A stretch of DNA of 64,000 nucleotides from a phage (GCA_004257845.1 GCA_004257845.1_4800.1), one strand, 5' to 3'. Shown: positions 2,290 to 58,386, counted from the first letter of the stretch. Notes: generated by a model not told the origin, from the letters alone. A program made the numbers and translations.

Positions 2290-3708
2290 ATGCGAATGCA
2301 AACGGCACGCGAAATTGACAAAAATGGATTCTTGACGATTATGGGTTGTCCAATTTCGTCATTTGGCATTTTTGATTATTCTGCTGGTCAAGTTGGTCTT
2401 GATGGTGATCCGAATCGCATCGTAAAAGTCTATCGCCCTGAGTCAGCGGTGAAAGACCCCGAAGCGATAGATTCATTCAAAAATATCCCTTTCATCGACA
2501 ATCACGAAATGCTTTCTGGATTTGAAGGTGATGAGGATAACACAGCACCCGAAGAGTATGGAGTTGATGGCGTTCTGACTGGCAATGTTTATTATGACAA
2601 GCCATGGATGCGCGGCGACCTTAAAGTGTTTAGCCGTCGTCTGAAGAAGGCCATTGATTCTGGAAAGGTTGACTTGTCTTTGGGCTATGACTGTGAATTC
2701 ATCATACAGTCTGGAGAGTTTGACGGGCAGCCGTATGAAGTGGTGCAGACAACTCTTCGCGGCAACCACATTGCTCTCGTGGACGTTGGTCGAGTACCAG
2801 GTGCACGGGTGCTGGATGGTCGTTGCTTTGACCATCTTTGTTTGACGACTGTAACACCATCCAACGAGGATTTAGACATGCCAAAACCGTTAAAAGGTAA
2901 AGCGCGTGATAATGCTGTTGAACAGCTGAAATCACTGATCCCTGCGCTCGAACAATTTCTGAATGAAGAGAGCACTGAAGCTGCTCATCAGGACGAAGTT
3001 GAAGTGAAAGCAGAAGAGAAGGACTCAACCGAAAATCGTGAAGAAGTAATGGTTGATCCAGAAGTCAAGGCAGAAGCAGAAGAAACCCCAGAAGGTGAAG
3101 AGAAGTTTGAAGTTGAAACTGAATCTAACGCTGGCGGCGAACTTCCGCAATTGATCAGCCAAATCGAAGCACTTATTGCAAAACTGAAAGGTGGCGCGGT
3201 AGGTGATGAAGAAGAAGTTGAAGCCGAAGTCAAAGACGAAGAAGTTGAAGTCAAGGCTGAAGATGTATCACCTTGCGACAAAGCTGAAGATGTGGTTAGC
3301 GGCCTGCAAAACAGCAACGTAAAGGGGGCTTCGGTCGAAAAAGATGACAAACCGACAAAAGCGGCGAAAGCGTCGCCAGGTCCAGCAAAAGGGGAACACT
3401 CAATGGCATCTGATTCAGCAGTTGCTGCTTTCTACGCTGATTCTGCTCGTAAGAATAGCCTCTACCAGCGCCTGTCTAAAGTTGTTGGTGCCTTTGATCA
3501 TGCAACTATGGACTCCAAGTCCGTAGCGAAATATGGCGCTAAAAAGTTAGGCTTGAAGTGCGTTGATGGCGCTGAGTTTGACGTGGTGGATAACTATCTG
3601 CGCGGCGTTGAACACGGTCAAAAACAGCGTGTAGTCGCAAAACAAAAGGCCGCTGCGGATTCTGCAGCAACTGACGAAGCATTTGAAGCTTGGTTGAAAG
3701 GGGAATAA
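2290..3708 (+). CDS. prohead scaffold / prohead protease-like protein
   Basis: Immediately upstream of capsid gene; long acidic low-complexity central region (EEVEVKAEEKD..., EEVEAEVKDEEVEVKAED) typical of scaffolding proteins; RBS GAGGGTGG before ATG. Confidence 0.45.
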   Translation: MRMQTAREIDKNGFLTIMGCPISSFGIFDYSAGQVGLDGDPNRIVKVYRPESAVKDPEAIDSFKNIPFIDNHEMLSGFEGDEDNTAPEEYGVDGVLTGNVYYDKPWMRGDLKVFSRRLKKAIDSGKVDLSLGYDCEFIIQSGEFDGQPYEVVQTTLRGNHIALVDVGRVPGARVLDGRCFDHLCLTTVTPSNEDLDMPKPLKGKARDNAVEQLKSLIPALEQFLNEESTEAAHQDEVEVKAEEKDSTENREEVMVDPEVKAEAEETPEGEEKFEVETESNAGGELPQLISQIEALIAKLKGGAVGDEEEVEAEVKDEEVEVKAEDVSPCDKAEDVVSGLQNSNVKGASVEKDDKPTKAAKASPGPAKGEHSMASDSAVAAFYADSARKNSLYQRLSKVVGAFDHATMDSKSVAKYGAKKLGLKCVDGAEFDVVDNYLRGVEHGQKQRVVAKQKAAADSAATDEAFEAWLKGE

Positions 3709-3710
3709 AC

Positions 3711-4328
3711 ATGACTTTCCAAACTAGTGTAGGCCGTCAATATACAACTGGCTTTCCTGGCGACATCGTTCGCGACGGCCCACAGCGTGGGAAGCCAGGT
3801 CGAATCGTTAGCGCCAACGAAGGTGCAAACGTAAACGCCATCAGCCGTGTGTTTGGTTTTAAAGCTGACGTATCTTTAATGGGCACTGGCCAAACCAAAA
3901 CCTTGGGCGCGCAGGACTTTGAAGTTGAACTGGGCGGCACCAATTACTATGGCATCCTTGGCAACAGCAAGCGTTACGCTCTGTATGGCAACTCTACTGG
4001 GCCTTTGGGTGCCAGCATGGTTCTGCCTCAATATAGCGAAGGCGAGTTTTACGATATGTGCACGGGCCTCGTAGTTGAAGTATTCAACCCTGGCACCAGT
4101 CCGCAGACGCTGAACTACGGCGACCTGCTCGCTTATGTACCTAAAGGCATTTCCAGCGGCAACAACCCGAACAACTTGCCTATCGGTGCAATTATCGCCT
4201 ATACTGGCTCACTGCCAACTGGCATGGCTGCCATTCCAGGCGGTATCGTGATTGACCCGACTGCTATTGCCCTTTCCGGCCCAAGCGTCCAGTCTTCCAC
4301 TTATACCATTGTACAATTGACTCGTTAA
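3711..4328 (+). CDS. capsid-associated structural protein (possible decoration protein)
   Basis: ATG at 3711 preceded by AAAGGGGA; Gly/Thr/Ser-rich; sits between scaffold-like and major capsid genes. Confidence 0.4.
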   Translation: MTFQTSVGRQYTTGFPGDIVRDGPQRGKPGRIVSANEGANVNAISRVFGFKADVSLMGTGQTKTLGAQDFEVELGGTNYYGILGNSKRYALYGNSTGPLGASMVLPQYSEGEFYDMCTGLVVEVFNPGTSPQTLNYGDLLAYVPKGISSGNNPNNLPIGAIIAYTGSLPTGMAAIPGGIVIDPTAIALSGPSVQSSTYTIVQLTR

Positions 4329-4342
4329 TAGGCAGGTGAATA

Positions 4343-5482
4343 ATGACTCGCATTAGCCAAACACACTCTCGCCTCCCAGCGAGCAAGGTGCGCCCTTTTG
4401 ATATGCAATCCGTTACCGACGCGGCTGTTTCCCAGCTTGCTCGTATCGGTATTGTGTTTGATTCCGCGATTGTGCGTGATCAGATTGAGCACTTAAACCG
4501 TGCAGGCGCTTTCCGCGTAGGTGATGCCGCGTTTACTGCGCCGCAGACCACTCCGTCAATCCCGACCCCGTTGCAGTTCCTGCAGCAGTGGTTGCCTGGC
4601 TTCGTCAAAATCATGACCGCCGCTCGTAAAATCGACGAGCTGGTTGGTATTGATACCGTTGGTCAGTGGGAAGATGCAGAAATCGTTCAGGGTATCGTTG
4701 AACCAGCTGGCACCGCAGTTGAATATGGTGATTTCACCTCTATTCCTCTGGCAAGCTGGAACGTAAACTTTGAACGTCGTTCTATCGTTCGTGGCGAAAT
4801 GGGCATGGCAGTTGGTATGCTGGAAGAAGGCCGCGCGTCTGCGATGCGTCTGAACTCCGCAGAAACCAAGCGCCAGCAGGCTGCTGTATCTCTGGAAATC
4901 ATGCGTAACGCAATCGGCTTCTATGGCTGGTACAACGGGAACAACCGTACATTCGGCTTCCTGAATGATCCAAATCTGCCAGCGGCGATGACTTCCAACA
5001 CCACTTCCGGCTGGGCTACTGCGACCTTCCAACAGGTGACTGCAGACATCCGTTTGATGGTTCGTCAAATTCGTGTGAACTCTCAGGACCAGATTGATCC
5101 AGAGAAGGTTGACATGACTCTGGCACTGCCGACCAACTCTATCGATTGGCTGTCCAACACCACTGACTTCGGTATTTCTGTACGTGACTGGATCACCCAG
5201 ACTTATCCGAAGATGAAGATCAAGTCTGCACCGGAACTCAACGGCGCACTTGGCAGCGACCCGACTTTCTTGAACGTGGCATACCTGTACGCTGATCACA
5301 TCGATTCCTCAATCGATGGTTCAAGCGATGATGGTTCCGTATTCAGTCAGCTGGTTCAGACCAAGTTCATGACTCTGGGCGTTGAAAAGCGTGCTAAGAG
5401 CTACGTCGAAGACTACGCAAACGCAACAGCAGGCGTTCTGCTCAAGCGTCCTTTCGCAGTCGTCCGTATGACTGGTATTTAA
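4343..5482 (+). CDS. major capsid protein (putative)
   Basis: 379-aa ORF following scaffold-like gene; RBS AGGTGAA before ATG; followed by GC-rich stem-loop; position and size typical of major capsid genes. Confidence 0.5.
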
Positions 5483-5509
5483 TTGCTGTGATTACACAGT
5501 AAAACACAT

Positions 5510-5535
5510 GGGGCGTGGTCGAAAGGCTTCGCCCC
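5510..5535 (+). terminator. GC-rich stem-loop after capsid gene (possible terminator/RNA-stabilising hairpin)
   Basis: GGGGCG(5510-5515)...loop...CGCCCC(5530-5535); no clear T-run downstream. Confidence 0.35.
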
Positions 5536-5597
5536 ATATCAATAGACCTCAAGGGCTGTAGGGGCTTATCTGAGGCTTATATAAATAGGACTACAAA

Positions 5598-6062
5598 ATG
5601 TCAAAATACATCGTTTCAACTATGTCTATGTCAGTAAACTACACCTTCTATACGGAAGTGAAAGAAAACCCGAATGCAAAAGCTGGTTCAGGCGCTCTTC
5701 CAAATATTCGCAAACAGATTCTAATCAAGGGCGGCGCTGGTCTTACTTCAGCAACTTCCGGCTTTGGTGAAATGGCAAAAGGCGCTGACGGTGCACCTTT
5801 GTGGACTCCTGAAGGAATCGTCACCGTTGTAAGCGATGCAGATTTTGAGCATCTGAAAGATCATCACGTATTTAAGCAGCATCTTGAAAAAGGTTTGGTG
5901 AAAGTCGTAAATCACGACATTGTTGGCAATCACAAAGCCGTCGCTAAAGAAGTTCGCGGCATGTCAGACGACCCGTTTGCGCCTATGACGCGCGAAACTG
6001 CTGACAAGCGCATCAAGGTGAAATTGAGCGGCGACCAAGAAGATGATTTATTCCGCGTTTAA
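5598..6062 (+). CDS. hypothetical virion protein
   Basis: ORF in same-strand morphogenesis array after capsid gene. Confidence 0.4.
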   Translation: MSKYIVSTMSMSVNYTFYTEVKENPNAKAGSGALPNIRKQILIKGGAGLTSATSGFGEMAKGADGAPLWTPEGIVTVVSDADFEHLKDHHVFKQHLEKGLVKVVNHDIVGNHKAVAKEVRGMSDDPFAPMTRETADKRIKVKLSGDQEDDLFRV

Positions 6063-6076
6063 ATAAGGTGAATGCC

Positions 6077-6532
6077 ATGTCATTAGATTACGAAAAGTTC
6101 AGAATTAAATTTCCACAGTTTGCTGATCAGGTTAAATTCCCTGACACAACACTTCAAGTATTCTATGACATGGCATGTGAATTTATTGAATCACAAGACA
6201 GTCCTTGTCGTGTTTTAAATGGCAGTAAATTGGAGCTGGCATTGGAATATATGACGGCTCATCTTTTATGCATAGCCGCAGACCAACAAGTGTCTGTGTC
6301 TTCTGGTGACGGAGTTGAACAAAGCGGCTTCGTGACTGGCGCAACAATTGGTGATATCACAGTGAACAAAGTCGCGCCGCCTGCAAGTGATGGTTGGGAA
6401 TACTGGCTTTCAAGCACTCCTTATGGCATGGCGCTGTGGGCGCTTCTTCAAGCACTGGCCGTTGGCGGCTTGTCATTCGGCGGTCTTCCAGAGCGTGAAG
6501 GATTCCGTAAAATTGGTGGGGTATTCTGGTGA
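6077..6532 (+). CDS. hypothetical head-tail joining region protein
   Basis: ATG at 6077 preceded by AAGGTGAA (track ORF begins at a GTG at 6068); stop overlaps next start. Confidence 0.4.
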   Translation: MSLDYEKFRIKFPQFADQVKFPDTTLQVFYDMACEFIESQDSPCRVLNGSKLELALEYMTAHLLCIAADQQVSVSSGDGVEQSGFVTGATIGDITVNKVAPPASDGWEYWLSSTPYGMALWALLQALAVGGLSFGGLPEREGFRKIGGVFW

Positions 6533-6915
6533 GGATTCCTGGCGTAAACTTATATCGAGTTGCGACAAAGGTTATCGGTCGCCAACCGATTCAATATTAC
6601 ATGTACAAGGGGCGCACCCTTGATAAGATGCGCAACTATGTCACTACATATGAAGAACCAATCACCTTACTTGCTTCGGTGCAGGCTGTACTTCGAAACC
6701 AATACGTTGAGCTTGGATTAGAGCTTCAAAAGAACTATGTCAAAATCTGGGTGGACAAAGACATTGTTGACCTTGACCGCGACGCTTCCGGCGACTATTT
6801 TGTGTTTGGTGGCAAAACGTACAAGATGGAAGATGAAACGACATGGTTTGACCAAGATGGTTGGACGTCTTGCCTTGCCGTGGAAGTAAAACAAAGCTTT
6901 CCAGTGTCTACTTGA
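6529..6915 (+). CDS. hypothetical head-tail joining region protein
   Basis: ORF with 4-nt start/stop overlap with neighbours. Confidence 0.4.
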   Translation: MRIPGVNLYRVATKVIGRQPIQYYMYKGRTLDKMRNYVTTYEEPITLLASVQAVLRNQYVELGLELQKNYVKIWVDKDIVDLDRDASGDYFVFGGKTYKMEDETTWFDQDGWTSCLAVEVKQSFPVST

Positions 6916-6916
6916 G

Positions 6917-7498
6917 GTGTATATGACAGATGTCGACCTGATTGACATGCTGGCAACGCGAATTGAAGAAGGTCTGGCGGCGTATAGTCGTGCAGACCTT
7001 TCTGCTGTTCCGGTCCAGAAAAAATACCAACCGACTCAACAGGGCATTCCGACTGGTGATCAGATTTGGTTTAACCTTTTATTCTCAGTTCCATTCGGTT
7101 GGTCGATGAGAAAGAATGAATTTGTCAATGATGAATCTCAATTCGTTAATGGCAAATTTAAAGATATTGAAGATCAGATATATGCAACACGTTTTCAAAT
7201 TAGCGGCTTATTTCCAGAAGTCCCTGGCAATCCAGAAAAGCCTACGGCTAATGACGTTTTGACTTATTTAGCAAGATTCATAACCCACAAGGCTAATTTG
7301 AGGGATTGGTTTAAAAGGCATCAAGCTTCAGTATATAGAGTCGACATGAACAACAATGAAAAGTTCTATGACGACATGTCTCAGTTCGAATCGTTTCCTT
7401 CTTTTGATTTGGTAATCCTTCACAGAAACGCAATTTCAATTGACACGCCTGCTGTTGCAAGAGCTGTTAATAATGATTTAGGCGATATTCCGGTGTGA
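6917..7498 (+). CDS. hypothetical neck/tail completion protein
   Basis: ORF in morphogenesis array; RBS-like GAGGTG before ATG. Confidence 0.4.
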   Translation: MYMTDVDLIDMLATRIEEGLAAYSRADLSAVPVQKKYQPTQQGIPTGDQIWFNLLFSVPFGWSMRKNEFVNDESQFVNGKFKDIEDQIYATRFQISGLFPEVPGNPEKPTANDVLTYLARFITHKANLRDWFKRHQASVYRVDMNNNEKFYDDMSQFESFPSFDLVILHRNAISIDTPAVARAVNNDLGDIPV

Positions 7499-7499
7499 T

Positions 7500-7985
7500 A
7501 TGACAAAATCAAAAATGATAGAAAAACAGATAAAGGCGCTTCAATCGATGAAGGGTCTTACTGTAGAGGCAGGATGGTTTGATTCTACCAGATACCCTTC
7601 AGAAACTGGTGGAGAAGGGATGTTGGTGTCAGAAGTCGCGCGACTTAATGAATTTGGTCACATAGCCGTTTTGAACTTTGGACAAGGTCCAGTCAGGGTA
7701 GAAGTGCCACCCAGACCATTCATGAGATATGCCTATGAATTATTCGTTAGTGAGCGCAGTGAAATAGAGAATAAAATTGCTAAAAAGATTTTTTCCGGTA
7801 AAATAGACGCTAGACAGGCATTAGGTCAGATTGGGCTTGCGATGGAAGCAAAGATTGTCGAATCAATTAAAAACGGACCTTGGCAAAGAAACGCCAGATA
7901 TACCGTGCGTGTGAAAGGATTCGACAAACCTTTAATTCACAGCAGCCTTATGTGGCAATCTGTCAACAGCCAAGTCATTAAATAA
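7500..7985 (+). CDS. hypothetical neck/tail completion protein
   Basis: ORF in morphogenesis array. Confidence 0.4.
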   Translation: MTKSKMIEKQIKALQSMKGLTVEAGWFDSTRYPSETGGEGMLVSEVARLNEFGHIAVLNFGQGPVRVEVPPRPFMRYAYELFVSERSEIENKIAKKIFSGKIDARQALGQIGLAMEAKIVESIKNGPWQRNARYTVRVKGFDKPLIHSSLMWQSVNSQVIK

Positions 7986-7997
7986 GAGGACACCGAC

Positions 7998-9536
7998 GTG
8001 ATCAGTCAATCTCGTTATATTAAAATTGTATCAGGGGTCGGAGCAGGCGCGGCTGTTGCAGTTCGCAAACTGTCGCTTCGCATCATGACTTCCAATACAG
8101 TTCTGCCGCCTGGCATTGTAGCAGAATTTTCAACTGCTGATGCCGTTGGATCATATTTCGGTTTTTCTTCCGAAGAATACAAGCGTGCAGCACTGTATTT
8201 CGGATTCATCAGCAAGCAAATCAACTCGCCTGATTCAATCAGCTTTTCTCGCGTTGTATCCACGGCGATTCCTGCAATGGTTATCGGCGACACTGAGCCT
8301 AAAACGCTTGCTACTTTCCAGGCATTCACTGGCGCTATCTTAAGCATCACTTATGACGGCACAGACTACCTGACTGACGCCATCAACCTTTCAGCGGCAA
8401 CAAGTCTTGCCAACGTAGCGGAACTTTTGGAAACGGCAATCAACACCAAGTTTGCAGCAGAAGGTGGCACGTCGGTGCCTGCACTTGCTGATGCAGAAGT
8501 GTATTGGAATGCCAACACCCAGCAGTTCACTTTGGAAGCCGCTCCGTCGACCGCTGGTGCTGGAAACCTTTCGATTAACGTCACAGGTCAACCGACAGAC
8601 CCATCTCAGGCGCTTGGTTGGACGACTACTGGCACCGTTACGGTTGCTGGACAGGGTGTAGCAAGTCCGGTAGAAGCCATCGCGGCATCTGTGGAGATTT
8701 CCAACAACTTTGGCTCATTCCTTTTCGCTGGAGCAGACCGAACGCTGGAAGAAATCACAGCCGTTGCAGCTTGGACTCACTCGCAGAACAACATGTACAT
8801 GTATCTGTTCTCGACTGCATTCGCCAACATCGGCTCATACTATACCGCGTTGAAAGGTTACTCAGGCGTTGGTATGATGATCCGTGCAACTAACCTCGCG
8901 AATGATTACATCGACCAGGCACCTGCTGAAATTCTTGCGGCGACAAACTATAACACTGTAAATGCAACTCAAAACTACATGTATTATCAGTTTGAAACGC
9001 GAAATGTAACCGTATCGACTGATTCACGCGCAGATACTGCTGATCAAAACCGTGCAAACTATATCGGTGCGACTCAGCAAGCTGGTCAAACTCTCGCGTT
9101 CTTCCAGCGTGGTGTTCTGATGGGCGGGTCTACCGCAGCAGTTGACATGAACACTTATGCCAACGAGATGTGGCTTAAATCTGCTATCACTTCTCAGCTG
9201 TTCAGCATGTTCTTGAATCTTGGTCGCGTGCCTGCAAACGAAGAAGGCAAAGCGACTGTCCAAGCCATGATTCAAGTTGCTGTTGACAATGCGAAGGTTA
9301 ACGGCACCATCTCTGTCGGTAAGGCGCTGACGGAAATTCAGAAACAGTACATCACGCAAACCTCCGGTGACAACACTGCTTGGCGGCAGGTTGAGACTAT
9401 CGGTTATTGGTTGACTGTCGATTTTGACACTGAAACCACTTCCGATAACCGCACCGAATACTATGCAACATACACGCTAATCTACTCTAAAGATGATGCT
9501 GTGCGTCGCGTTGAAGGTCGTGACGTTCTTATTTAA
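7998..9536 (+). CDS. tail sheath-like protein (putative)
   Basis: 512-aa ORF with GTG start preceded by AAGAGGA; directly upstream of a tube-like ~155-aa gene and separated from it by a GC hairpin, an arrangement typical of contractile tails; call by position and size only. Confidence 0.4.
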   Translation: MISQSRYIKIVSGVGAGAAVAVRKLSLRIMTSNTVLPPGIVAEFSTADAVGSYFGFSSEEYKRAALYFGFISKQINSPDSISFSRVVSTAIPAMVIGDTEPKTLATFQAFTGAILSITYDGTDYLTDAINLSAATSLANVAELLETAINTKFAAEGGTSVPALADAEVYWNANTQQFTLEAAPSTAGAGNLSINVTGQPTDPSQALGWTTTGTVTVAGQGVASPVEAIAASVEISNNFGSFLFAGADRTLEEITAVAAWTHSQNNMYMYLFSTAFANIGSYYTALKGYSGVGMMIRATNLANDYIDQAPAEILAATNYNTVNATQNYMYYQFETRNVTVSTDSRADTADQNRANYIGATQQAGQTLAFFQRGVLMGGSTAAVDMNTYANEMWLKSAITSQLFSMFLNLGRVPANEEGKATVQAMIQVAVDNAKVNGTISVGKALTEIQKQYITQTSGDNTAWRQVETIGYWLTVDFDTETTSDNRTEYYATYTLIYSKDDAVRRVEGRDVLI

Positions 9537-9542
9537 ATAATT

Positions 9543-9560
9543 GCCGCCGTAAATGGCGGC
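9543..9560 (+). terminator. stem-loop between sheath-like and tube-like genes
   Basis: GCCGCC (9543-9548) ... GGCGGC (9555-9560); no T-run. Confidence 0.3.
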
Positions 9561-9583
9561 CATCTCTCTGAGAGGAATCTGTA

Positions 9584-10051
9584 ATGATTAACGTTTCCGG
9601 TTTTGGCGCTTCGATTCGTTTGGTAGCATCAAACACTTTTCCGAATGGTGTGACTCTTTCTGATTTTGCAGATGATGCTGATCCGATTGACGCGCCGGAC
9701 CTGCAAATCTCTGAGGCTGCAATGGGCCTTAACGGTGACTTAGTAGTATGGAACCGTGCAAACCCGCTTGAAGTAGGTGTGAACATCATCCCTACTTCTG
9801 AAAGTGATGTCAACTTGGACGTTCTTGCAGCTGCAAACCGCGTAGGCAAGCGTAAGAACTCTGCAAAAGACGTGATCACACTTGTGCTGACTTATCCTTC
9901 TGGAATGGTTATCACGCTAAACAAAGGCACCTTGACAACTGGTTCAGTAATTCCTGGCATCCAGTCTCAAGGTCGTGTGAAAACACGCCAATATCGCTTC
10001 AAGTTTGAGAACGTAGTCAAAACTGGCGTGAGCAACCAAGAGATTTTATAA
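9584..10051 (+). CDS. tail tube-like protein
   Basis: 155 aa; strong RBS GAGAGGAA; paralogous to product of 11002-11499 (MINVSGFGASIRLVA... vs MVNISGFGTSIRIVA..., shared ITYP.G..., KTR/KTNRY motifs). Confidence 0.45.
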   Translation: MINVSGFGASIRLVASNTFPNGVTLSDFADDADPIDAPDLQISEAAMGLNGDLVVWNRANPLEVGVNIIPTSESDVNLDVLAAANRVGKRKNSAKDVITLVLTYPSGMVITLNKGTLTTGSVIPGIQSQGRVKTRQYRFKFENVVKTGVSNQEIL

Positions 10052-10380
10052 TGTATCAAATACCACTTGACAGCGTACCTAACCAGAATATCAGCTTTAA
10101 CGTTGACGGTGCATATTGGCAGTTGCACATTTTTGCTGCTATCGAGCACATGTGCGCCGACGTATACCGCAACGGTGAACTTTTGATTCAAGGGGTGCGC
10201 TGTTTTGGTGGTATCCCAATGGTGCCTTATAAGTATCTCATGATTGGGTACGGTAATTTCATTTTCGACAGCGTACCTGATTATGAAAGTTTTAACTCTG
10301 GCGGCTGTAATCTATATTACATGTCAGAATCTGAGTTGGCTGAATTCCAGGCAACTGCTGAAGCGGAGTTTGCAATTTGA
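10051..10380 (+). CDS. hypothetical tail protein
   Basis: ORF, start overlaps previous stop. Confidence 0.4.
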   Translation: MYQIPLDSVPNQNISFNVDGAYWQLHIFAAIEHMCADVYRNGELLIQGVRCFGGIPMVPYKYLMIGYGNFIFDSVPDYESFNSGGCNLYYMSESELAEFQATAEAEFAI

Positions 10381-10733
10381 CAACTCTAACAATTGAAGTT
10401 AACGAAAATAATGACCTTTTTCTGCCTGATGGAAGAAACTTAAATATTCTTTCAGGAGAAAAAGCGATGGTGCAAGTAATCAAGGCCGCGCACCAGATGC
10501 GACTTGGTGAAGACTTGTACGATATAGAAAACGGTGTCGATTATTTGGGGACCGTTTTCAAGTCGCCCGTTGACGAAGACGGTGCGCGAAAGTCGATTGC
10601 AGATGCTATTCTGAAGAAAGCAGACGTTGCCGGAATCGACTCATTGACTGTCACCATCCAAAACGGTATCCTTGGATTCACTGCAGAAGTGGTGACTATT
10701 TATGGCGAACGTATAAAGGTGAGTAATCAATAA
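10377..10733 (+). CDS. hypothetical tail protein
   Basis: ORF, 4-nt overlap with previous gene. Confidence 0.4.
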   Translation: MTTLTIEVNENNDLFLPDGRNLNILSGEKAMVQVIKAAHQMRLGEDLYDIENGVDYLGTVFKSPVDEDGARKSIADAILKKADVAGIDSLTVTIQNGILGFTAEVVTIYGERIKVSNQ

Positions 10734-11499: not shown

Positions 11500-12032
11500 T
11501 GGCTATCGATTTACTGTCATATAGTCTATCAAACAGAAGCTTCACGATAAAGAGCTTCAACCTTGGAGAAGTATCCACGCTTGGATGGGCCATAGTCAAC
11601 GTCAAAATAAGACTCCAAGCGAAGATATTCAAAAACCAAAGGGAAGACGGCAGCTATATTGTCGATGGCAGAGTAAAGATGCCGCGAATACTCACTGTCA
11701 CCGTGATAGCTCAGACGAAAAGCGCATCAGATGCAATAGCTAAGATGTTGCAAAACAGGTCGACTATATACACAATTAATTCCCGTGGTCTAATATTCGA
11801 ACGTATGGTGCTGCAAAATAACAACTTCAGCCAGGACGCTGACAATATAACGTCTCAGCCCATACAATTGGTCTTCCATGAGATATTAACACAGCAGGAT
11901 GTGTCTATTCAAACAGCGCAGGCAGGCGACTCAACAGTAATAGAGCGCGGCATTGCATACATAAAAGAAACTTCTGCCAGCGTCACTGGCGTCGCTACAA
12001 AGGTGATGAATGGTATCAAGGGGATGTTCTGA
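11499..12032 (+). CDS. hypothetical tail protein
   Basis: ORF, start overlaps previous stop. Confidence 0.4.
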   Translation: MAIDLLSYSLSNRSFTIKSFNLGEVSTLGWAIVNVKIRLQAKIFKNQREDGSYIVDGRVKMPRILTVTVIAQTKSASDAIAKMLQNRSTIYTINSRGLIFERMVLQNNNFSQDADNITSQPIQLVFHEILTQQDVSIQTAQAGDSTVIERGIAYIKETSASVTGVATKVMNGIKGMF

Positions 12033-12592
12033 TGGACTTCGTTTCGATTCTGCTTTCTGGTCAATCTTTGACCATAACGAATGAGTCAACAGGTCTTCCT
12101 GTCTGGACAAGGCTTTCACCTGTTTCTGCAGAAATAACATCCCCAGCAGAAACAACTCAATTCCCTCTTGCTGGTACAGCCATGCAGGTTGTCGAAGTAT
12201 CAAGCACGTCATCAGTAAGCAATTTACAGGCGGCAAAGGTTGTAATGCCAGCCCATATGGCGTTAAACGTAATTTGCAATGACCAGTCTACAATTGAAAA
12301 TATCATAAATTCATTTGATGATGACGAAGTCACATTTTCAATAACTTCTCGAAGCATCATTGCCAGTAAAATGTCGATGTCCGACGTTGAAATAACCCAG
12401 TCAGAAGAAAACTTGAATGGAGTCTCAATAGTAATAACTTTCGAGCAAACGTCATTTAGCATTCAAGGAAGCTTCGACCCTAAACAATCTGCAGACGAAT
12501 CATCAAATGGTGTTGCCATTAAAGAACCAGTCAGTTTGACTACAACTGTGAGTTCGTTATATAATAAAATAAAATCAACAGTAGGAATATAA
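12032..12592 (+). CDS. hypothetical tail protein
   Basis: ORF, start overlaps previous stop. Confidence 0.4.
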   Translation: MDFVSILLSGQSLTITNESTGLPVWTRLSPVSAEITSPAETTQFPLAGTAMQVVEVSSTSSVSNLQAAKVVMPAHMALNVICNDQSTIENIINSFDDDEVTFSITSRSIIASKMSMSDVEITQSEENLNGVSIVITFEQTSFSIQGSFDPKQSADESSNGVAIKEPVSLTTTVSSLYNKIKSTVGI

Positions 12593-24101: not shown

Positions 24102-24640
24102 CGCACATCCTGTGTCTTAACATTACCTGAAGCATCTCTTAAGGGCAGTGGATAGTAGGCCATTTGGTAGTCTGATACGCCTTCAACATGATAAAACACG
24201 ATTACGTCTTTGCTGTTGATGAGCATGTTAACGACATCTGATTTATCTTCTGGAGTGAGTATGAGTGCGCCGCCTGTCCTGCTGTCTACTGCAACAGGGT
24301 ATGTCTTGTCGACAAGGCCGCTGTCCAATGTATTATACCTGACAACGATTTCAGCGGCATCAACTTTTGCAATTGACATTCCGAACACAAACGAAACGAC
24401 TTGGCGACCGCGATCATTCATTACGCACATCTTTTCCTTATCAAACCTTTCCTTTATCACATCATATTTGTTCCAGCAAAATTCGAACGATTGGCCGTTG
24501 TTAAAATATCTCGTTAACACTTTGGCATTACTATTTGGCGGCGTAAACATACTTTCAGCCGCTGCACTTTTGGTGAAGAACAAGACTGTCAGCATAGCCA
24601 TGATGGTGATCAAAACAATCTTTAAAGTTTTCGATTTCAT
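24098..24640 (-). CDS. secreted/periplasmic protein, hypothetical
   Basis: N-terminal signal-peptide-like sequence MKSKTLKIVLITIMAMLTVLFFTKSAAAE. Confidence 0.45.
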   Translation of the reverse strand: MKSKTLKIVLITIMAMLTVLFFTKSAAAESMFTPPNSNAKVLTRYFNNGQSFEFCWNKYDVIKERFDKEKMCVMNDRGRQVVSFVFGMSIAKVDAAEIVVRYNTLDSGLVDKTYPVAVDSRTGGALILTPEDKSDVVNMLINSKDVIVFYHVEGVSDYQMAYYPLPLRDASGNVKTQDVR

Positions 24641-24723
24641 TATAATTCACCTTTTGATTACGAATATTAATAGTATAGGCCGAAGGTTTTGAAAGTAAAT
24701 AAGGCGAAAGGTAAATAAAAGAA

Positions 24724-24743
24724 AAGCCGGAGATTTCCGGCTT
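24724..24743 (-). terminator. intrinsic terminator downstream of ligase-like gene
   Basis: Stem AAGCCGGA / TCCGGCTT with 4-nt loop; T-rich tract follows on the minus strand. Confidence 0.5.
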
Positions 24744-24816
24744 TATGTATACACTGTATATTAAATTCTATAAAACGACGCGATAGATTATCCGCACCAA
24801 TTATTTATCTAGTGTC

Positions 24817-25779
24817 TTAAAAATACTCCATATCGGTAATATCACGGAAGCATTTATACAAAGCAGAGCGCGGCACGTCGACGATGCCAAAGTTAAAGAA
24901 TTTATACGTTAGGTATTTATCGCGATAGTTCTCGCGATTCTCCCAAAGCATTTTACGCTCTGCCATAGGCATTGAACCAGCGGAGACGCGGAAAGGAATC
25001 ATTTCACCTTTCTCATCCACATATTTTGGATTGACGACTACGAATGAGCCAAGGTATCCTTTCGCAACTAAACCTTCAGCCTCTTTTGAACGCTTGGTGC
25101 GACCCAATTCGTCAATGAATGCTTCGTTGTTGTTCTCCATCATCTCAACGAAGTCTATGATCAACCCTTCTTCATCGGTCCACGGCTTGTCCTTCCACAC
25201 ATCACGTGACTTCGGCGTCGCGCGGCCATGCTTATATTTGCCCGTCCAAGACTTGCCATACAAGCCTTCATATCCAAGCTGGTCTGCTTCGATTTGCATC
25301 GCCGCGTACTGTTCCATATTTTCGATGTTTCGATATTCGAGAGCGCGAAGGAATGGGCGTCGACCATGGTTGATGAGATGTTGATTAACTTCAGCAACTC
25401 TAGCTCGATAGTTTGCATAACGCTTTTCAAAAGGCAGATCAGGGTCGCTGAAGTCATCAAACACCCACCATGTAAAGTTAGTGATTGCATCAGTATTCAT
25501 GCATGCAGTATAGGCCTGTTGCATGACGTTCTTATCATTTGGATTGCCGTCGATTAGCTCTCCATCAAGTCCGTGAATTAGTTCACCCAAAAAGAGGAAC
25601 TCTTTTTTGATTTGAACGTTGCGCAACGGCATGCCGGAAGTGCCCATTGGCAAGTTGTCATACGCCATTGCACGTATGCCATCGACCTTGAATGACAGTC
25701 CGCAAGGCAGCGGCACGTCCTCGCCGCGCTCGATAATCTGCTTACGTTGGCAACCCTTCATTGGTTTTAATGCTGTCAT
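24817..25779 (-). CDS. ATP-dependent polynucleotide ligase (DNA or RNA ligase), nucleotidyltransferase superfamily
   Basis: Motif I KVDGIR (KxDGxR), motif III-like FLGELI, motif IV-like EEGLIID. Confidence 0.5.
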   Translation of the reverse strand: MTALKPMKGCQRKQIIERGEDVPLPCGLSFKVDGIRAMAYDNLPMGTSGMPLRNVQIKKEFLFLGELIHGLDGELIDGNPNDKNVMQQAYTACMNTDAITNFTWWVFDDFSDPDLPFEKRYANYRARVAEVNQHLINHGRRPFLRALEYRNIENMEQYAAMQIEADQLGYEGLYGKSWTGKYKHGRATPKSRDVWKDKPWTDEEGLIIDFVEMMENNNEAFIDELGRTKRSKEAEGLVAKGYLGSFVVVNPKYVDEKGEMIPFRVSAGSMPMAERKMLWENRENYRDKYLTYKFFNFGIVDVPRSALYKCFRDITDMEYF

Positions 25780-38937: not shown

Positions 38938-39786
38938 TTATTCTGCTTGATCGTCGTGCTCTTCGGCATCTGCTTCGGATTCAACATCGATGAACTCGAT
39001 GTGGCCCATCTCTTCCAGTTTGCTCAGGTAAGAGCGAACTGAAGCGCCAAACAGCTGATCTTTAACTTTTTCACCCAGCTCGTCGATAGACTGCGGCTGA
39101 CCGATTTCACCTTCTTTGATCGCAGCCAGTACGCGACCACGGGTGGAATGTTCTTGCGGCTGGCTCAGGCCGTTTCCGGTGTAAACAAAGTGAGTTGCTT
39201 TAGCGCGACGCTGACCATTAGCTTTCTTGGCGGCTTTACGCTCTGCAATCGCTTTGCGACGCTCTTCAGCTTCTTTCTTACGCTGTTCTTTCTGTTGTTC
39301 TGCAGCTTCTTTCGCCGCAATCTTAGCAGCTTCACGCTCTGCCTTGCGTTTCGCTTTCGCTTCTTCTTTAGCCTTTTCTTTTTCGGCTTTCGCTTCTGCA
39401 CGGGCCTGATCACGTTCAGCCTTTTTCGCCGCAGCTTGTTCAGCTTTCAGGCGCTTGGCTTCTTCTTTCGCCTTTGCCTTTTCAATTTCTTTAGCGGCTT
39501 TAGCGGCTTCACGCTCTGCCTTCTTAGCAGCAGCCTTTTCAGCACGCTCTGCAGCCTTCTTAGCGGCTTCTTCAGCACGCTTCTGAGCCTTCTCGTCAGC
39601 AGCCTGCTTGCGTTTCAGCGCAGCTTCTTCACGCTTGGCTTGTTTTTCCTGCTCACGCTTCTGGCGTTTTTCTTCGGCTTCTTTCTTTTTAGCCAGGCGT
39701 TTTTCTTCAGCCACGCGACGACGTTCTGCTGCAGCTGCTTGTTTTTCTTCTTTAGATAATACTTTGATTGCTTCGGCCATATTCAC
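38938..39786 (-). CDS. Lys/Ala/Glu-rich low-complexity protein with C-terminal globular domain (histone H1-like composition)
   Basis: About 190 aa of KAE-rich repeats (KKAAERAEKAAAKKAEREAAKAAKE...) then non-repetitive C-terminus; strong terminator downstream. Confidence 0.5.
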   Translation of the reverse strand: MNMAEAIKVLSKEEKQAAAAERRRVAEEKRLAKKKEAEEKRQKREQEKQAKREEAALKRKQAADEKAQKRAEEAAKKAAERAEKAAAKKAEREAAKAAKEIEKAKAKEEAKRLKAEQAAAKKAERDQARAEAKAEKEKAKEEAKAKRKAEREAAKIAAKEAAEQQKEQRKKEAEERRKAIAERKAAKKANGQRRAKATHFVYTGNGLSQPQEHSTRGRVLAAIKEGEIGQPQSIDELGEKVKDQLFGASVRSYLSKLEEMGHIEFIDVESEADAEEHDDQAE

Positions 39787-54312: not shown

Positions 54313-54604
54313 GCGTATAATGACGTAAGATTTGGACCTATCCGTAGTTCACTCCACACACTTCTATGGTGCGCCGCGACTGGGTTCAGTGGTACATCTT
54401 ACGGATGATACGGATGATACGCGTCGCCGCTATACTTTATACAACTTTGAAAAAACAATTAACTCCATTTTGAATTAATTTAAATTAATTTTTTTCTACA
54501 TCCTCATACTTATACTAAACTTATATTTATACGTATTATCCGTAAGATATAAGTAAAAACAAAGACTTGCGGCAATACGGATGATACGTCATGATACGCT
54601 TCGA
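54313..54604. repeat. iteron-like region 2 (diverged paralog of region 1)
   Basis: GCGTATAATGACGTA at 54313-54327; TACGGATGATACGGATGATACGCGT at 54400-54424; AT-rich stretch about 54430-54530; inverted TATTATCCGTAAGAT at 54533-54547; ACGGATGATACGTCATGATACGC at 54578-54600. Confidence 0.7.
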
Positions 54605-54710
54605 CCAGCCAGCAGCGGCTAAGTCATTGATTTGCATAACAAGCGGCGAAAGGGATGGATTTCTTTTATACGTATCAAACAGTACACCACGCACCACGGT
54701 CCGCAATCCT

Positions 54711-56283
54711 ATTTGCACTATGATTTGTGTACGTTTATAGCCATAATGAACATCAATCTGCACTTGAATATAATGTCCATCCATTGTATAATTCACACTA
54801 TTAATTTGCACTATGGGATTTTGCACTATGAGTCAAGATTATGTAGCGATGCCTGAAGACTTTGAAGACCCGCGATTCGCAGAGCACAATCAGGCTTTAT
54901 TCGATGAGTTCATTGACCTTGTTATTCAGGGCCATGACATGCGCGCAGCTTTTGCACTAGTATTTGGAATGGAAGTTGCAACGGATAACTACACTGGCCA
55001 GCGAATCCTTTGCGCACAACGCAATCCGTACTACAAAATGCGCTTCAAAAAGCGTATGGAAGAGATGCCACTCAAGGATTTGTGGAGCGTAAAAGGTGCA
55101 ATTCACAATTTGGTCAAGCTTGTGCGTGATCCAGAAGTCGCGGCGTCAGCCAAGCTTAATGCTATTCGTGAACTGAATATCATCTACGGCATCACGATGA
55201 TTGATGAAAACGGCAATAGTAAAATGGGCCGTTCCATGGACGATTTCTACAAGGATTTTGGAGAGGCAGCCAAAGAAGGTGAGCAATTCTCCCGCCACTA
55301 GCCAATTTGCACTATAAAACGGCCCTAGAACACATTTTCTCCACTTCTAGGGCCATCGGTAATACGACGGGGAAGGTTACAACCGTAAACGCGTTAGAAA
55401 GTGTATTATTATAAGTCATCTTTTAGTCACTTTACGTAACAATTTACGACCTTCAACCGTCCAATCGAACGACTCCACCAGCAGATTTGCACTATAACCT
55501 AAGACGATGCGCCCTTTCTCGTTATCGACCCGCCAACAAGTCTCGAATAGCATTCGATTTGCACTATTAACTATTGCCGCAACTCGCGTAGGATAAGCGC
55601 AATTTGCACTATGGTCGTAAAGGGATAAGGTGCGACCACTTCCGATGGACAACGTAGCGATGAGAATGAGTGTATTCATAAGCCACCAATTTGCACTATG
55701 AAAAGCGACCCCGAAGGGCCGCCATTCGATTAGATAATCTGGAAGGTGTAGGACTTGTTGCCGAACTCGAAGTTTAAGCGTCCAGCTTCCTTAAGCTTCA
55801 TGCGGAAGCGAATGTGCTTGCTATCCGGTAAGCCCAGCGCGGCGAACGCTACGCGGACCGATTTGAACTCGCCTACACCCTCGACCATGACACCGTTACG
55901 GGTAAGACGCTTTTGCGCCACTTCCTTATTATCCCAACTTTTTGCAATACCTTCGCTATTCGAACGGCGATGGGATGGAGTTCCATTTTGCACTACGCAA
56001 TTTGCACTATCGTTTAAACCGCTCTTAACGAAGGCTTCATACTCTTCGTCGGTCATCGCGTCGAGTTCTTCCTGGGTCGGCTCGGACTTTTTAACGACCG
56101 CACGCGCCTTATGCGTTTTTACATCGTTGGGCACTTCCTCGCGCGACTTCGCGTCTGGGATGGGCGACTCGTTGGACGGCTCATCGAGCGCGTTTAAGGA
56201 CTCGATTAACGCTATTACGCGAGTCTCGGCGGTCCGGCGGTCCGCAAATTTTTTGATCGGCTTCGAACCGGAATTTGCATTAT
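54711..56283 (+). repeat. dispersed same-orientation array of 12-bp motif AATTTGCACTAT (at least 11 copies including variants)
   Basis: Copies at about 54711, 54803, 54819, 55304, 55485, 55557, 55601, 55688, 55985, 55999, 56272, all on the + strand; several lie antisense within minus-strand ORFs. Confidence 0.75.
54813..55301 (+). CDS. hypothetical protein
   Basis: ORF; start could be ATG 54813 or 54828 (no clear SD for either); followed by hairpin 55321-55354 (10-bp stem GGCCCTAGAA / TTCTAGGGCC). Confidence 0.4.
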   Translation: MGFCTMSQDYVAMPEDFEDPRFAEHNQALFDEFIDLVIQGHDMRAAFALVFGMEVATDNYTGQRILCAQRNPYYKMRFKKRMEEMPLKDLWSVKGAIHNLVKLVRDPEVAASAKLNAIRELNIIYGITMIDENGNSKMGRSMDDFYKDFGEAAKEGEQFSRH

Positions 56284-56356
56284 AAAATGCAACGAGGTCG
56301 GCGGTCTTAGTTGCGATAACGTCGCCGCTAGTCGAGAAACGATTTAAGCTAACCAT
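55730..56356 (-). CDS. hypothetical protein (CpG-rich island)
   Basis: 208-aa ORF with distinct codon usage; contains antisense motif copies encoding SANCVVQNG. Confidence 0.4.
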   Translation of the reverse strand: MVSLNRFSTSGDVIATKTADLVAFYNANSGSKPIKKFADRRTAETRVIALIESLNALDEPSNESPIPDAKSREEVPNDVKTHKARAVVKKSEPTQEELDAMTDEEYEAFVKSGLNDSANCVVQNGTPSHRRSNSEGIAKSWDNKEVAQKRLTRNGVMVEGVGEFKSVRVAFAALGLPDSKHIRFRMKLKEAGRLNFEFGNKSYTFQII

Positions 56357-56436
56357 AATGAACTCCTATTTGTTAGGGCGCTAGGCGCGAAAGAATTTTA
56401 TTAAAGCGCCGCGCACGACGCTCTAAAAATCCTCTC

Positions 56437-56721
56437 TTACGCTTCGACGAGGGAGAAGGTCTCAAATTCTTCTTCGCCCATAACGAGTAAGATGTTACCG
56501 ATTTCGACCGCTTCGAAGAAGTATCCGTTAACGTTTACTTCGAAGGCTTCGCGGTCCGATTCCGGTAACGCCGCGTAAAGTTTAAAAGCCTCGGCGACCG
56601 TAACCCCACCCGCCTCGATAGTTTGGTCTACGTTCGCGGCGTAGACTTCGGATAAAATTTGTTTTACGCCGTAGTTCTCGACGATAGCGTTACGGATAGA
56701 AGAAACGTTAAGAATAGCCAT
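56437..56721 (-). CDS. hypothetical small protein, paralog A
   Basis: 94 aa; similar to product of 57355-57645 (SIRNAIVE/AIRSARVE, VYxxNVDxTIE, NGxxxxxxEIG). Confidence 0.45.
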   Translation of the reverse strand: MAILNVSSIRNAIVENYGVKQILSEVYAANVDQTIEAGGVTVAEAFKLYAALPESDREAFEVNVNGYFFEAVEIGNILLVMGEEEFETFSLVEA

Positions 56722-56945
56722 TTTAAACTCCTAGTTGGGAGAGGCGTTAACGACCTATTCGTTAACTCATCCCGTCCCGATATGAGTACATTATAATATA
56801 GTGTAGAAAAAAGTAAAGCACTTTTTCGATAAAGATGAGATAAATTATTTTATCTTTTTTCTTTACTTCTTCGTACACTCGCGTATACTTGTTTATATCG
56901 AGACGGGCGATGACCCTTTCTTTTACTACCATCGGGAGTTTTATT

Positions 56946-57248
56946 ATGGCTACTTTAATTTCTTCTCTTCTTACTTACGACGAAGACCGCTTAACCGTCG
57001 CTTCTCTTCTTAAAGCCGTTAACGCAGAATTAGACGGGACCGCTATTAAGGTCCGCGCGTTCGCCTTCGTCGGCCTTTCCTTCGACGATATGAAGTACGT
57101 CGAACGTAGCGCCATCCGCTTCGCGAAGACCGACGACGAAGCCGTTACCCTTATCGAAACCGTAACGCCGCGCGGCGAAGCGCTAATTATCGTCGAGTAT
57201 CTCGATATAGAAGGCTATAAAGCTTATAAACATTTTATCGCAAAATAA
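56946..57248 (+). CDS. hypothetical small protein
   Basis: ATG 56946 preceded by GGGAG; CpG-rich codon usage. Confidence 0.4.
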   Translation: MATLISSLLTYDEDRLTVASLLKAVNAELDGTAIKVRAFAFVGLSFDDMKYVERSAIRFAKTDDEAVTLIETVTPRGEALIIVEYLDIEGYKAYKHFIAK

Positions 57249-57354
57249 CGAAAAGTGCTTTACTTCTTCGTACACTAAGACTATAATGTTTTATATCGAG
57301 AGGGGATGAGGTAGCGAATAGGTCGCTACCCGCCCGACCAACTAGGAGATTATT

Positions 57355-57645
57355 ATGATTACTTTAGCCGCTATCCGTTCCGCTCGCGTCGAGACTTCCG
57401 AAAACTCTAACGTATTTGGCGAAACCTTAGAGAGCGTTTATCTCTCTAACGTAGACGCAACTATCGAATCTATTTATGAGCCGATCAACTTCCTCGACCT
57501 TTACAAGTATCGCGATGAGGACATCGTATCTTGCCGCGTAACCATCAACGGCTTCGTCTATACGATTACCGAAATCGGCGGCGAATATCTCGCGGTCCCG
57601 CAACTCGGCGGCGAAGTAACTTTCTTTAAAATCGTAAGCCTGTAA
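57355..57645 (+). CDS. hypothetical small protein, paralog B
   Basis: 96 aa; similar to product of 56437-56721 but on the opposite strand; RBS AGGAGA. Confidence 0.45.
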   Translation: MITLAAIRSARVETSENSNVFGETLESVYLSNVDATIESIYEPINFLDLYKYRDEDIVSCRVTINGFVYTITEIGGEYLAVPQLGGEVTFFKIVSL

Positions 57646-57656
57646 GGAGAAGGAAG

Positions 57657-57866
57657 ATGACTAATATGAATAATTCTCTTAACGCGCGCGCCCATCGTAC
57701 CGCCGTAATCGATATGTTCCGCGAGCTTAAGGAATTATGCGATAATATGAACGCGATGTTATCCATCGGCGGCTGGGGATACGAAGAAGAGGTTAAATAC
57801 GCGGTTATGCGTCGCCGTCGCGATAACGTCCTTGGGCAAATTAAACGCGCCGGATTATTCCTTTAA
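57657..57866 (+). CDS. hypothetical small basic protein
   Basis: ORF preceded by GGAGAAGGAAG. Confidence 0.4.
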   Translation: MTNMNNSLNARAHRTAVIDMFRELKELCDNMNAMLSIGGWGYEEEVKYAVMRRRRDNVLGQIKRAGLFL

Positions 57867-57892
57867 TTATAATTACCAACAGTTACTAATAG

Positions 57893-57914
57893 GCCGCGCT
57901 TAGTCGCGGCTTTT
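57893..57914 (+). terminator. rho-independent terminator
   Basis: GCCGCG (57893-57898), loop CTTAGT, CGCGGC (57905-57910), then TTTTCTT. Confidence 0.6.
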
Positions 57915-58036
57915 CTTCGCCCCTATCTCGATGCGCTTCTCCGCGAAAACTCCTTTATCCTTCCCTTCGTCGTCGCATAATCTTCGTCGAGATGCTCCTT
58001 AGTTCGTATAACGGGTATTACGTTAAATGGAGAACA

Positions 58037-58110
58037 TCGCGTAAGTCCTTGTTTTATATAGACACCTATATCGGACCGTTAGGGCGGGTCGCGTAAGTCG
58101 TTGTTTTATA
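58037..58110 (+). repeat. 22-bp direct repeat pair TCGCGTAAGTC(C/G)TTGTTTTATA
   Basis: Copies at 58037-58058 and 58089-58110, one mismatch, in a non-coding CpG-rich stretch. Confidence 0.6.
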
Positions 58111-58386
58111 AAGGCGCAAAACTTTCCCTTCGTTCCGAACTAAAACGAGGAATATGCCGACCCTTCGTCCGAAAATAGTACGCATGCGAAATTACATGCA
58201 TCTCGAATAATTCCCACCGATATTATCCTACAAGCAATCATTCTCTTTCGAATCATTATGCTTCATATTATTATGCGTCGAATCATTCGCTTTCGAATTG
58301 TAACGCTGGAAACTGTAACGGCGATTGATTATTGCGTTCGTGTGGTTTTTAGGGCATGGGTCTTTTGGTGCGTTTTGGTACTTGAT

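Follow-up and report, generated by a model that had tools for sequence, protein, structure and literature searches.

Layout of the terminal repeat

We analyzed a 64,000-nucleotide (nt) phage sequence (GCA_004257845.1; the window), focusing on a segment at 55,320 to 58,350 that an initial annotation had described as a CpG-rich, horizontally acquired accessory cassette possibly encoding anti-defense or host takeover functions. The window is from a Wifcevirus, a myovirus of Escherichia coli and Shigella with a genome of ∼68 kb, and 29 records match it at 91 to 96% identity. We found that the segment is the inner three quarters of the direct terminal repeat (DTR) of this phage and lies within the DTR in 29 of 29 related genomes. 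It forms a compositional island whose primary feature is the avoidance of the dinucleotides CA and TG (CA/TG).

The boundaries of the repeat come from two relatives and were transferred to the window via an 11-genome alignment. Phage Mansfield has an annotated, PhageTerm-defined DTR at 1 to 3673 (3,673 bp), and the ends of the WFC genome are identical to each other over 3,784 bp. On this basis, the ∼3.9-kb DTR, present as one copy in an assembly written circularly, extends from the left genome terminus at 54,467 to 58,365 (Mansfield PhageTerm) or 58,446 (WFC record) and holds seven open reading frames (ORFs). Its outer part, from 54,467 to ∼55,300 to 55,480, is of normal composition and contains an iteron/AT-rich structure, a gene resembling that of the terminase small subunit (TerS-like), and Chi. 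The iteron structure (54,395 to 54,600) consists of the iteron GGATGATACGGATGATAC (7 matches versus 0.02 expected), an AT-rich spacer in which the left genome terminus is located, and an iteron-like sequence in inverted orientation. The same arrangement occurs again between head genes at 1,955 to 2,183; it may function as a terminase, packaging, or origin element. The TerS-like gene (54,813 to 55,301, plus strand; phrog_4783), also of normal composition, encodes 162 amino acids (aa), and the Mansfield annotation, based on HHpred, identifies it as terminase small subunit.

Beyond the outer part lie a transition zone with intermediate CA/TG depletion (55,300 to 56,200) and the CA/TG-free island core (56,200 to 58,150). 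Genes g3, g2, and g1 run leftward and g4, g5, and g6 rightward, with a divergent promoter region between them. On the minus strand are g1 (55,416 to 55,679; 87 aa), which has homologs in Pantoea phage Kyle and Serratia phage SMP; g2 (55,730 to 56,356; 208 aa; phrog_4730), the largest gene of the island; and g3 (56,437 to 56,721; 94 aa; isoelectric point [pI] 4.05), a distant paralog of g5 that is missing from RCIP0319. On the plus strand are the fast-evolving g4 (56,946 to 57,248; 100 aa), g5 (57,355 to 57,645; 96 aa; pI 4.23), and g6 (57,657 to 57,866; 69 aa; phrog_10377, “transcriptional regulator”), which is present only in some isolates (the window, F13, ECML-117, and FEC19). Small acidic proteins (pI 4.0 to 4.9) are encoded by g3, g4, and g5, and basic ones by g1, g2, and g6. 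Other genera retain g1, g2, and the TerS-like gene; only g3, g6, and some additional small ORFs vary in their presence. For example, AV128 and RCIP0363 have an additional 153-nt ORF between g4 and g5, and F13 has a longer spacer in the island.

The g2 protein has conserved N- and C-terminal domains, and by eye only, a motif in the latter resembles a DNA-binding helix-turn-helix. Homologs occur in 356 phage records, including those of Pbunavirus, Kylevirus, and Myosmarvirus, and g2 adjoins the TerS-like gene in three of four relatives studied in detail. The best 120 of 309 matches were all at least 97% identical, which is too uniform for a structure-prediction alignment, and the homolog search for g3 returned only three near-identical clusters. 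For g4, which shows 71 to 88% identity among 20 clusters, the ratio of nonsynonymous to synonymous codon differences among isolates is 1.07 (291 versus 273); the ratios of the other repeat genes, 0.10 to 0.38, indicate clear purifying selection. The fast evolution of g4 would be compatible with an arms-race target. An AlphaFold2 model of its product from 19 sequences was unusable (pLDDT, 45.7), and Pfam, PHROGs, PADLOC, and PDB profile searches returned nothing usable for the island proteins.

The island holds three of the five best sigma-70-like promoters in the window. A TTTACT-N16-TATAAT site at 56,790 to 56,817 (minus strand) points toward g3-g2-g1, a TTTACT-N16-TATACT site at 56,862 to 56,889 (plus strand) toward g4, and a TTTACT-N17-TATAAT site at 57,259 to 57,287 (plus strand) toward g5; the latter two share the 19-nt box CTTTACTTCTTCGTACACT. 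Based on these promoter-like sites, we propose that the island is probably a (pre-)early gene block transcribed by the host polymerase. Downstream of g6, we read from the sequence a terminator-like hairpin, GCCGCG-CTTAGT-CGCGGC followed by TTTTCTT (57,893 to 57,917, plus strand), that is not in the terminator scan list. The inner end of the DTR (57,918 to 58,320) is a noncoding, repeat-rich stretch of ∼400 bp with direct repeats at 58,037/58,089, 58,126/58,161, and 58,220 to 58,307 as well as several inverted repeats. By analogy to the annotated injection stop signal of T5, this stretch is suggestive of a terminase or injection-stop region. In the Wifcevirus window, WFC, and Kyle, the island stops 100 to 250 bp short of the inner DTR end. 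The small genes on both strands, the terminator, and the direct repeats described in the initial annotation are thus all present, as are the promoter repeats.

CA/TG avoidance and its maintenance by selection

The G+C content of 55,320 to 58,350 is 0.464, unchanged from that of the window (∼0.46). CpG is 1.94 times as frequent as expected versus 1.13 times in the rest of the window. The reported compositional anomaly is stronger than had been claimed, and the island coordinates proved accurate. Based on strand-symmetric k-mer counts, CA/TG occurs 181 times against 443 expected (0.41×), falling to ∼0.15 to 0.25× in the core, while CG and TA rise to 1.79× and 1.68×, respectively, and the total of pyrimidine-purine steps is unchanged. 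Longer words are affected more severely. The scarcity of CAG/CTG, also noted initially, amounts to 13 occurrences against 101 expected, and CTG is the most depleted triplet (4 versus 65); CTGA/TCAG is absent (27 expected), and GTGA/TCAC occurs once (25 expected). Outside the island, 300-nt windows contain 43.9 ± 5.5 CA plus TG (minimum, 17), compared with as few as 4 inside; counts per 200 nt are 3 to 11 in the core and ∼28 elsewhere. The three longest CWG-free gaps of the 64 kb (870, 615, and 426 nt) all fall within the island.

Along the sequence, the depletion deepens gradually between 55,300 and 56,200 and is extreme between 56,200 and 58,150, and composition is back to normal by ∼58,200 to 58,300. 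CA and TG are depleted equally, and the depletion affects genes on both strands at every codon phase as well as intergenic DNA, which argues for a constraint on double-stranded DNA and not on mRNA. Two other low-CA/TG stretches, at 1,788 to 2,290 (iterons) and 24,594 to 25,017 (terminator), are AT-rich intergenic DNA and represent a different phenomenon. A generic loss of sequence complexity is real but too small to be the driver (798 distinct 5-mers versus 933 ± 15).

Codon usage shows that CA/TG avoidance is the primary signal and the CpG excess secondary. In core genes, CTG and TTG account for 1 of 33 leucine codons (47% in reference genes), GTG for 0 of 34 valine codons (27%), TCA for 0 of 20 serine codons (27%), ACA for 0 of 21 threonine codons (21%), GCA for 3 of 36 alanine codons (34%), and CAG for 0 of 4 glutamine codons. 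CA or TG spans 14 of 359 codon junctions in core genes and 1,421 of 6,125 in reference genes. Even the proteins are reshaped: glutamine, histidine, cysteine, tryptophan, and methionine, which cannot be encoded without CA/TG, make up 5.6% of residues, down from 10%. All three island promoter-like sites have the −35 box TTTACT in place of TTGACA. Maximization of CpG as the primary signal is ruled out by the observation that TCG and ACG codons are not favored; CpG is located mainly at NNC|GNN junctions (25 to 30 per gene in g3, g4, and g5). Since a third-position pyrimidine can meet G or A only as C|G or T|A, both CpG and TpA rise as by-products. The codon usage is therefore atypical, as the initial annotation proposed, in that every synonymous codon containing CA/TG is shunned, but the proposed preference for CG-containing codons does not extend to TCG and ACG, and the CpG island label describes a genuine excess that is a secondary effect.

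The avoidance is actively maintained. In the 11-genome alignment, changes that create CA/TG in the core are rarer than expected (40 versus 86), and changes that remove it are more common (45 versus 15); neither class is biased in the flanks. This is not due to a lack of variation, as 247 of 1,331 core sites (18.6%) are variable compared with 11 to 13% in the flanks. Each CpG or TpA transition makes CA/TG, and therefore a neutral island would decay fast. We conclude that purifying selection against CA/TG is ongoing on both strands of the island and that CWG is avoided most strongly. The CA/TG-free composition was kept in the relatives that we profiled; isolates with variant gene content were not profiled separately.

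The same signature occurs in the same place in two other genera, Kylevirus and Myosmarvirus, whose islands are not homologous to that of Wifcevirus. In the 3,603-bp repeat of Kyle, positions ∼1,500 to 3,400 are depleted to an equal degree, and the SMP island contains 73 CA/TG against 277 expected; both islands have TTTACT-N17-TATAAT promoters. SMP has two g2 paralogs (record positions 5,605 to 6,639 and 10,167 to 10,670), the shorter inside the island and the other, which carries a fused 140-aa N-terminal extension, outside it. Over 159 aligned codons, the inside copy contains 14 CA/TG and the outside copy 65. Near the g2 homologs of PB1, Luteibacter phage Pluto, and Aeromonas phage Gekk3-15, the island is absent, and a search of viral contigs for related loci returned close relatives only. 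Together, the Kyle and SMP islands, the SMP paralogs, and the island-less relatives tie the bias to repeat position in enterobacterial genera and not to gene ancestry. Based on these observations, the island is very probably the early block of a terminal repeat under position-specific selection against CA/TG.

This signature is not universal to terminal repeats, as the repeats of T5 and Staphylococcus phage K are CpG enriched with normal CA/TG and T7 shows nothing of the kind. The T5 (1 to 10,219) and K (1 to 8,486) repeats do differ in composition from adjacent DNA, with CpG at 2.2× and 1.6×, respectively, and enrichment of CGC/CCG; the T5 repeat is also AG/GA poor. Early regions in terminal repeats may generally carry a composition of their own.

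Restriction phenotypes, Chi sites, and their interpretation

Published phenotypes provide a link between the DTR and restriction. In the BASEL study, Wifcevirus phages resisted nearly all restriction systems, EcoP1_I being the exception, and the mechanism was left open (PMC11990801). Phages Bas98 to Bas100 plated with an efficiency of ∼1 on EcoCFT_I, EcoRV, and EcoCFT_II and of 0.3 to 0.9 on EcoRI, but formed zero plaques on EcoP1_I, although EcoCFT_II sites are as numerous as EcoP1_I sites (PMC11990801). We assigned EcoCFT_II to CACAG, the sole pentamer that reproduces the published site counts (87 in Bas101 and 81 in T7); AGGCC was ruled out by its T7 count of 60. The DTR contains no CACAG where ∼5 are expected (Poisson P ∼ 0.007), and the nearest copies lie just beyond its boundaries (54,030, 54,163, and 54,171 on one side; 58,479 and 58,635 on the other). 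Sites for EcoRI, EcoRV, and EcoAI are also absent from the DTR, while the EcoP1_I site AGACC occurs seven times, in both orientations. Whole genomes have 15 to 19 EcoRI (GAATTC) and 3 to 7 EcoRV (GATATC) sites, yet the phages resist both enzymes. Plating results and the DTR site map thus agree, in that the resisted systems EcoRI, EcoRV, EcoCFT_I, and EcoCFT_II have no DTR sites; the agreement is correlative and covers six systems. T5-like phages similarly resist type I, II, and III systems when the sites lie outside their terminal repeats (PMC10644984), and in Murciavirus, of the Autographiviridae, the early-injected leading region decides sensitivity to type I systems (PMC12455610). We therefore think it probable, with moderate confidence, that, as in T5, the DTR is the DNA exposed first and that the sites it contains determine the outcome of restriction.

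The outer part of the DTR differs from the island in its Chi content. The exact Chi GCTGGTGG at 55,475 to 55,482 (minus strand) is kept in all 11 genomes, and one-mismatch Chi-like sites occur on the same strand at 54,602, 54,609, and 55,295, making 54,600 to 55,482 a Chi-carrying zone of normal composition; the island has zero Chi-like sequences on either strand. In Kyle, 9 exact Chi fall within the initial 2 kb of the repeat (record positions 255 to 1,972), and SMP has 4 in 420 bp (11,947 to 12,368) between the island and the TerS-like gene. Clustering is clear in these two phages and weak in Wifcevirus (1 exact and 3 near matches). All lie on the strand with its 3′ end at the left terminus and would be active on RecBCD entering there. 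From this arrangement, RecBCD probably meets the genome at its left end, with the repeat organized as a Chi buffer ahead of an early block poor in targets; a role of the repeat in recombination would also be compatible. Terminally clustered Chi supports RecBCD-dependent growth in P1 and LLS-type lambdoid phages, which likewise have exact Chi near or in their terminal repeats, nearly all oriented for RecBCD entry at the nearby end (PMC12315714). The Wifcevirus layout departs from theirs in having one exact Chi and in placing Chi in the outer DTR part, not in the island.

We propose that no phage protein has yet been made when the terminal repeat becomes exposed in the cell. Chi sites in its outer part would disarm RecBCD entering the free left end, and the inner part would offer strong TTTACT-N17-TATAAT promoters and small genes with minimal targets for host nucleases. 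The acidic (g3, g4, and g5) and basic (g1, g2, and g6) products would then protect the remainder of the genome from restriction. This scheme supposes that the DTR enters first, that restriction and related nucleases select against CA/TG, and that the island proteins confer the protection. As a whole, the combination of an early block in the DTR, selection against CA/TG, and T5-like first-step stealth is the account toward which we lean, if only by a little. The anti-defense or host takeover role suggested initially is plausible in light of the promoters, the small orphan proteins, the fast evolution of g4, the variable gene content, and the published, unexplained breadth of restriction resistance, although Pfam, PHROG-function, and PADLOC searches gave no match for any island protein; an early or anti-defense region is a plausible description.

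Restriction would account for the purge only partly. We considered a sample of 138 real methylation and restriction-modification motifs (Blow et al. 2016, S4 table). CA/TG is present in 69% of the type I motifs, where it is the top class, and in 62% of type I, III, and IIG motifs combined (53% ± 5% after letter shuffling). The island core has sites for 52 of the 138 motifs, compared with ∼70 for equal-length controls, and GATC is the most underrepresented CA/TG-free 4-mer in all three islands (observed/expected ratio, 0.23). CAG, the most depleted triplet, is common to the type III systems of Enterobacteria that have short sites (CAGCAG, CAGAG, and CACAG), and five-base sites are those that a 3-kb segment cannot lack by chance. 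We tentatively regard restriction-type nucleases as the agent behind the purge, at somewhat less than even confidence.

Several observations weigh against these proposals. The restriction correlation comprises six systems, four of which are expected to have less than one DTR site by chance. The Bas101 DTR contains one EcoKI site, EcoKI is not in the Bas98 to Bas100 raw data, and the AGACC sites have not been purged. GA/TC is level with CA/TG in real type I motifs, and CA/TG avoidance saves only ∼10 to 25% of possible restriction specificities. Six-base palindromes are not depleted (15.6 versus 12.7 per kb), and TCGA (33 versus 11.4) and CGCG (35 versus 12.9) are both enriched. T5 infects the same host, yet CA/TG is normal in its first-step DNA, which is biased in another way. 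In library searches, no island protein matched a known anti-restriction protein or T5 A1 or A2. With so small a gain in specificity and palindromes undepleted, generic restriction avoidance looks too weak for so costly a bias. The purge may point to an undescribed reader of very short elements, either an Enterobacterales defense or a phage takeover nuclease, a suggestion that we make with considerable doubt.

The nuclease could be the phage's own. If a CA/TG-preferring takeover nuclease, pre-early or virion delivered, degraded host DNA while only the repeat was inside, the site-free island would survive and the rest of the genome would enter later. The bias is lineage specific, being common to three related genera but not found in T5, T7, or phage K, which are biased differently or not at all, and so a phage-encoded reader, such as a takeover nuclease, stays a serious rival. 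Because avoidance operates on a dinucleotide, the recognition element would be very short, and T5 is described as breaking down host DNA during first-step transfer. However, library and PDB profile searches recognized no nuclease-like gene in the island, host DNA degradation is unreported for these phages, and a nuclease alone would not explain the contrast between EcoP1_I and EcoCFT_II; we consider such self-immunity unlikely. We also rate as unlikely a role in recombination or replication, in which RecBCD would enter the left end and be switched by the Chi cluster. The island would then be the 3′ strand coated by RecA, and its invasion of the other repeat would yield concatemers or prime replication. 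Without CTG, GTG, and TGG, every Chi-like sequence and every DnaG priming triplet (CTG) would be gone, such that the strand stays single and exchange stays in the repeat. The oriented Chi clusters that immediately precede the island in three genera fit this idea, as do the Chi-supported growth of P1 and LLS-type phages and the extreme depletion of CTG, at which E. coli DnaG starts primers. It leaves the depletion of TCA, CAA, ACA, and GCA unexplained, and depletion of one strand would suffice, yet both are depleted equally. Moreover, RecA prefers GT-rich DNA, the opposite of the island pattern, and the phage has its own primases.

Modification of the rest of the genome at CA/TG-containing sites could also block restriction, with the island left unmodified and, for example, readable at once by host RNA polymerase. 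CACAG and the EcoKI and EcoAI sites contain CA/TG and AGACC does not, and the genome encodes a thymidylate synthase homolog, a MazG-like enzyme, and a polynucleotide kinase. We find this quite improbable given that EcoRI and EcoRV sites lack CA/TG and are present in the genome but resisted all the same, that no modification genes were recognized in the genome, and that modification is unreported. The initial proposal of a horizontally acquired cassette that keeps its donor's dinucleotide signature accounts for a composition sharply unlike that of the flanks, for gene content that varies among isolates, and for the orphan status of most island proteins. We reject it as very improbable in view of the genome-typical G+C content, the DTR location in every related genome, the signature that polymorphism shows to be actively maintained, its recurrence at the same DTR position in diverged genera, and the SMP paralogs, of which only the island copy is depleted; we also know of no genome with CA/TG near 0.2 to 0.4. 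Accessory status had been made contingent on the island genes not being conserved core genes, and g2 belongs to the core genes shared across the family. Finally, the strongly atypical codon usage and the probably heavy transcription from the promoter-like sites might be taken to indicate an mRNA or translation constraint, through codon adaptation or avoidance of RNase or toxin cleavage motifs. In genes of both orientations, however, sense-strand CA and UG are both depleted at each of the three codon phases, as they are in spacers and promoters that are not transcribed, and strand-asymmetric depletion that tracks transcription was not seen. The most avoided leucine codon, CTG, is the one most used by E. 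coli, and the phage has no tRNA genes (PMC11990801, S2 table), making such a constraint hardly credible.

Comparison with known systems and significance

Among known systems, T5 and BF23 (Tequintavirus) provide a close likeness to the proposed first-step stealth: a multikilobase DTR with small genes on both strands, host sigma-70 promoters, a noncoding repeat-rich stretch at the inner repeat end, a repeat that differs in composition from the rest of the genome, and whole-genome resistance to type I, II, and III systems unless sites fall in the repeat (PMC10644984). The Wifcevirus repeat is shorter (3.9 versus 10 kb), no homologs of A1, A2, or dmp were found in it, and its outer part carries the TerS-like gene and Chi sites; by sequence, it is not a member of the T5 family. 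Two-step transfer is a T5 feature and would apply to Wifcevirus by analogy only. The biases also differ, with T5 being CpG/GC rich and AG/GA poor with normal CA/TG and Wifcevirus showing a 3- to 10-fold loss of CA/TG.

As the DNA that probably enters first, the island also resembles the leading regions of T7 (gene 0.3), Murciavirus (PMC12455610), and conjugative plasmids in lacking host restriction motifs and in being variable in gene content. Leading regions encode small anti-defense proteins, a likeness that the island may share, but Ocr-, Ard-, and S-adenosylmethionine hydrolase-like proteins were not recognized among the island proteins. Leading regions lose individual motifs, whereas the Wifcevirus island loses a dinucleotide, and the T7 left end has no CA/TG island. 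Underrepresentation of short nuclease or methylase targets and the presence of fewer real restriction-modification motifs recall the restriction-site and GATC avoidance of phages (for example, Rusinov et al. 2018, cited in PMC8594841). Classical avoidance is genome-wide, motif specific, and mostly of palindromes; here, it is confined to 2 to 3 kb and concerns a dinucleotide, and 6-mer palindromes are undepleted.

While T5-type logic is known, we are aware of no description, in the literature that we searched or elsewhere, of a purge that acts on a dinucleotide and is shared by three genera. The 3- to 10-fold local purge has been held through the divergence of these genera, reshaping amino acid composition and the −35 box, and is among the strongest local composition constraints in a phage known to us. 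The DTR site map provides a simple, testable answer to the EcoP1_I-only block and names about six candidate genes. If the purge does reflect an undescribed reader of very short elements, local dinucleotide “stealth” coding would be a general, unrecognized layer of the phage-host arms race, and dinucleotide islands could be used to find leading regions and anti-defense genes in other phages. The cause, if found, would either extend the T5 paradigm to another family or reveal a nuclease with a new mode of sequence reading. In phage therapy and engineering, the account predicts which synonymous edits would widen or narrow host range.

Two further observations concern the rest of the window. Outside the island, TTTACT-N16-18-TATACT promoter-like sites occur only at 24,699 and 60,316, both on the minus strand, and may mark further early transcription units. 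At 38,938 to 39,786 (minus strand), a gene for a 282-aa low-complexity protein rich in lysine, glutamate, and alanine, with KAEK-type repeats and a globular C terminus, causes a strong AT skew (−0.37) and an excess of GpC (1.9) in its kilobase.

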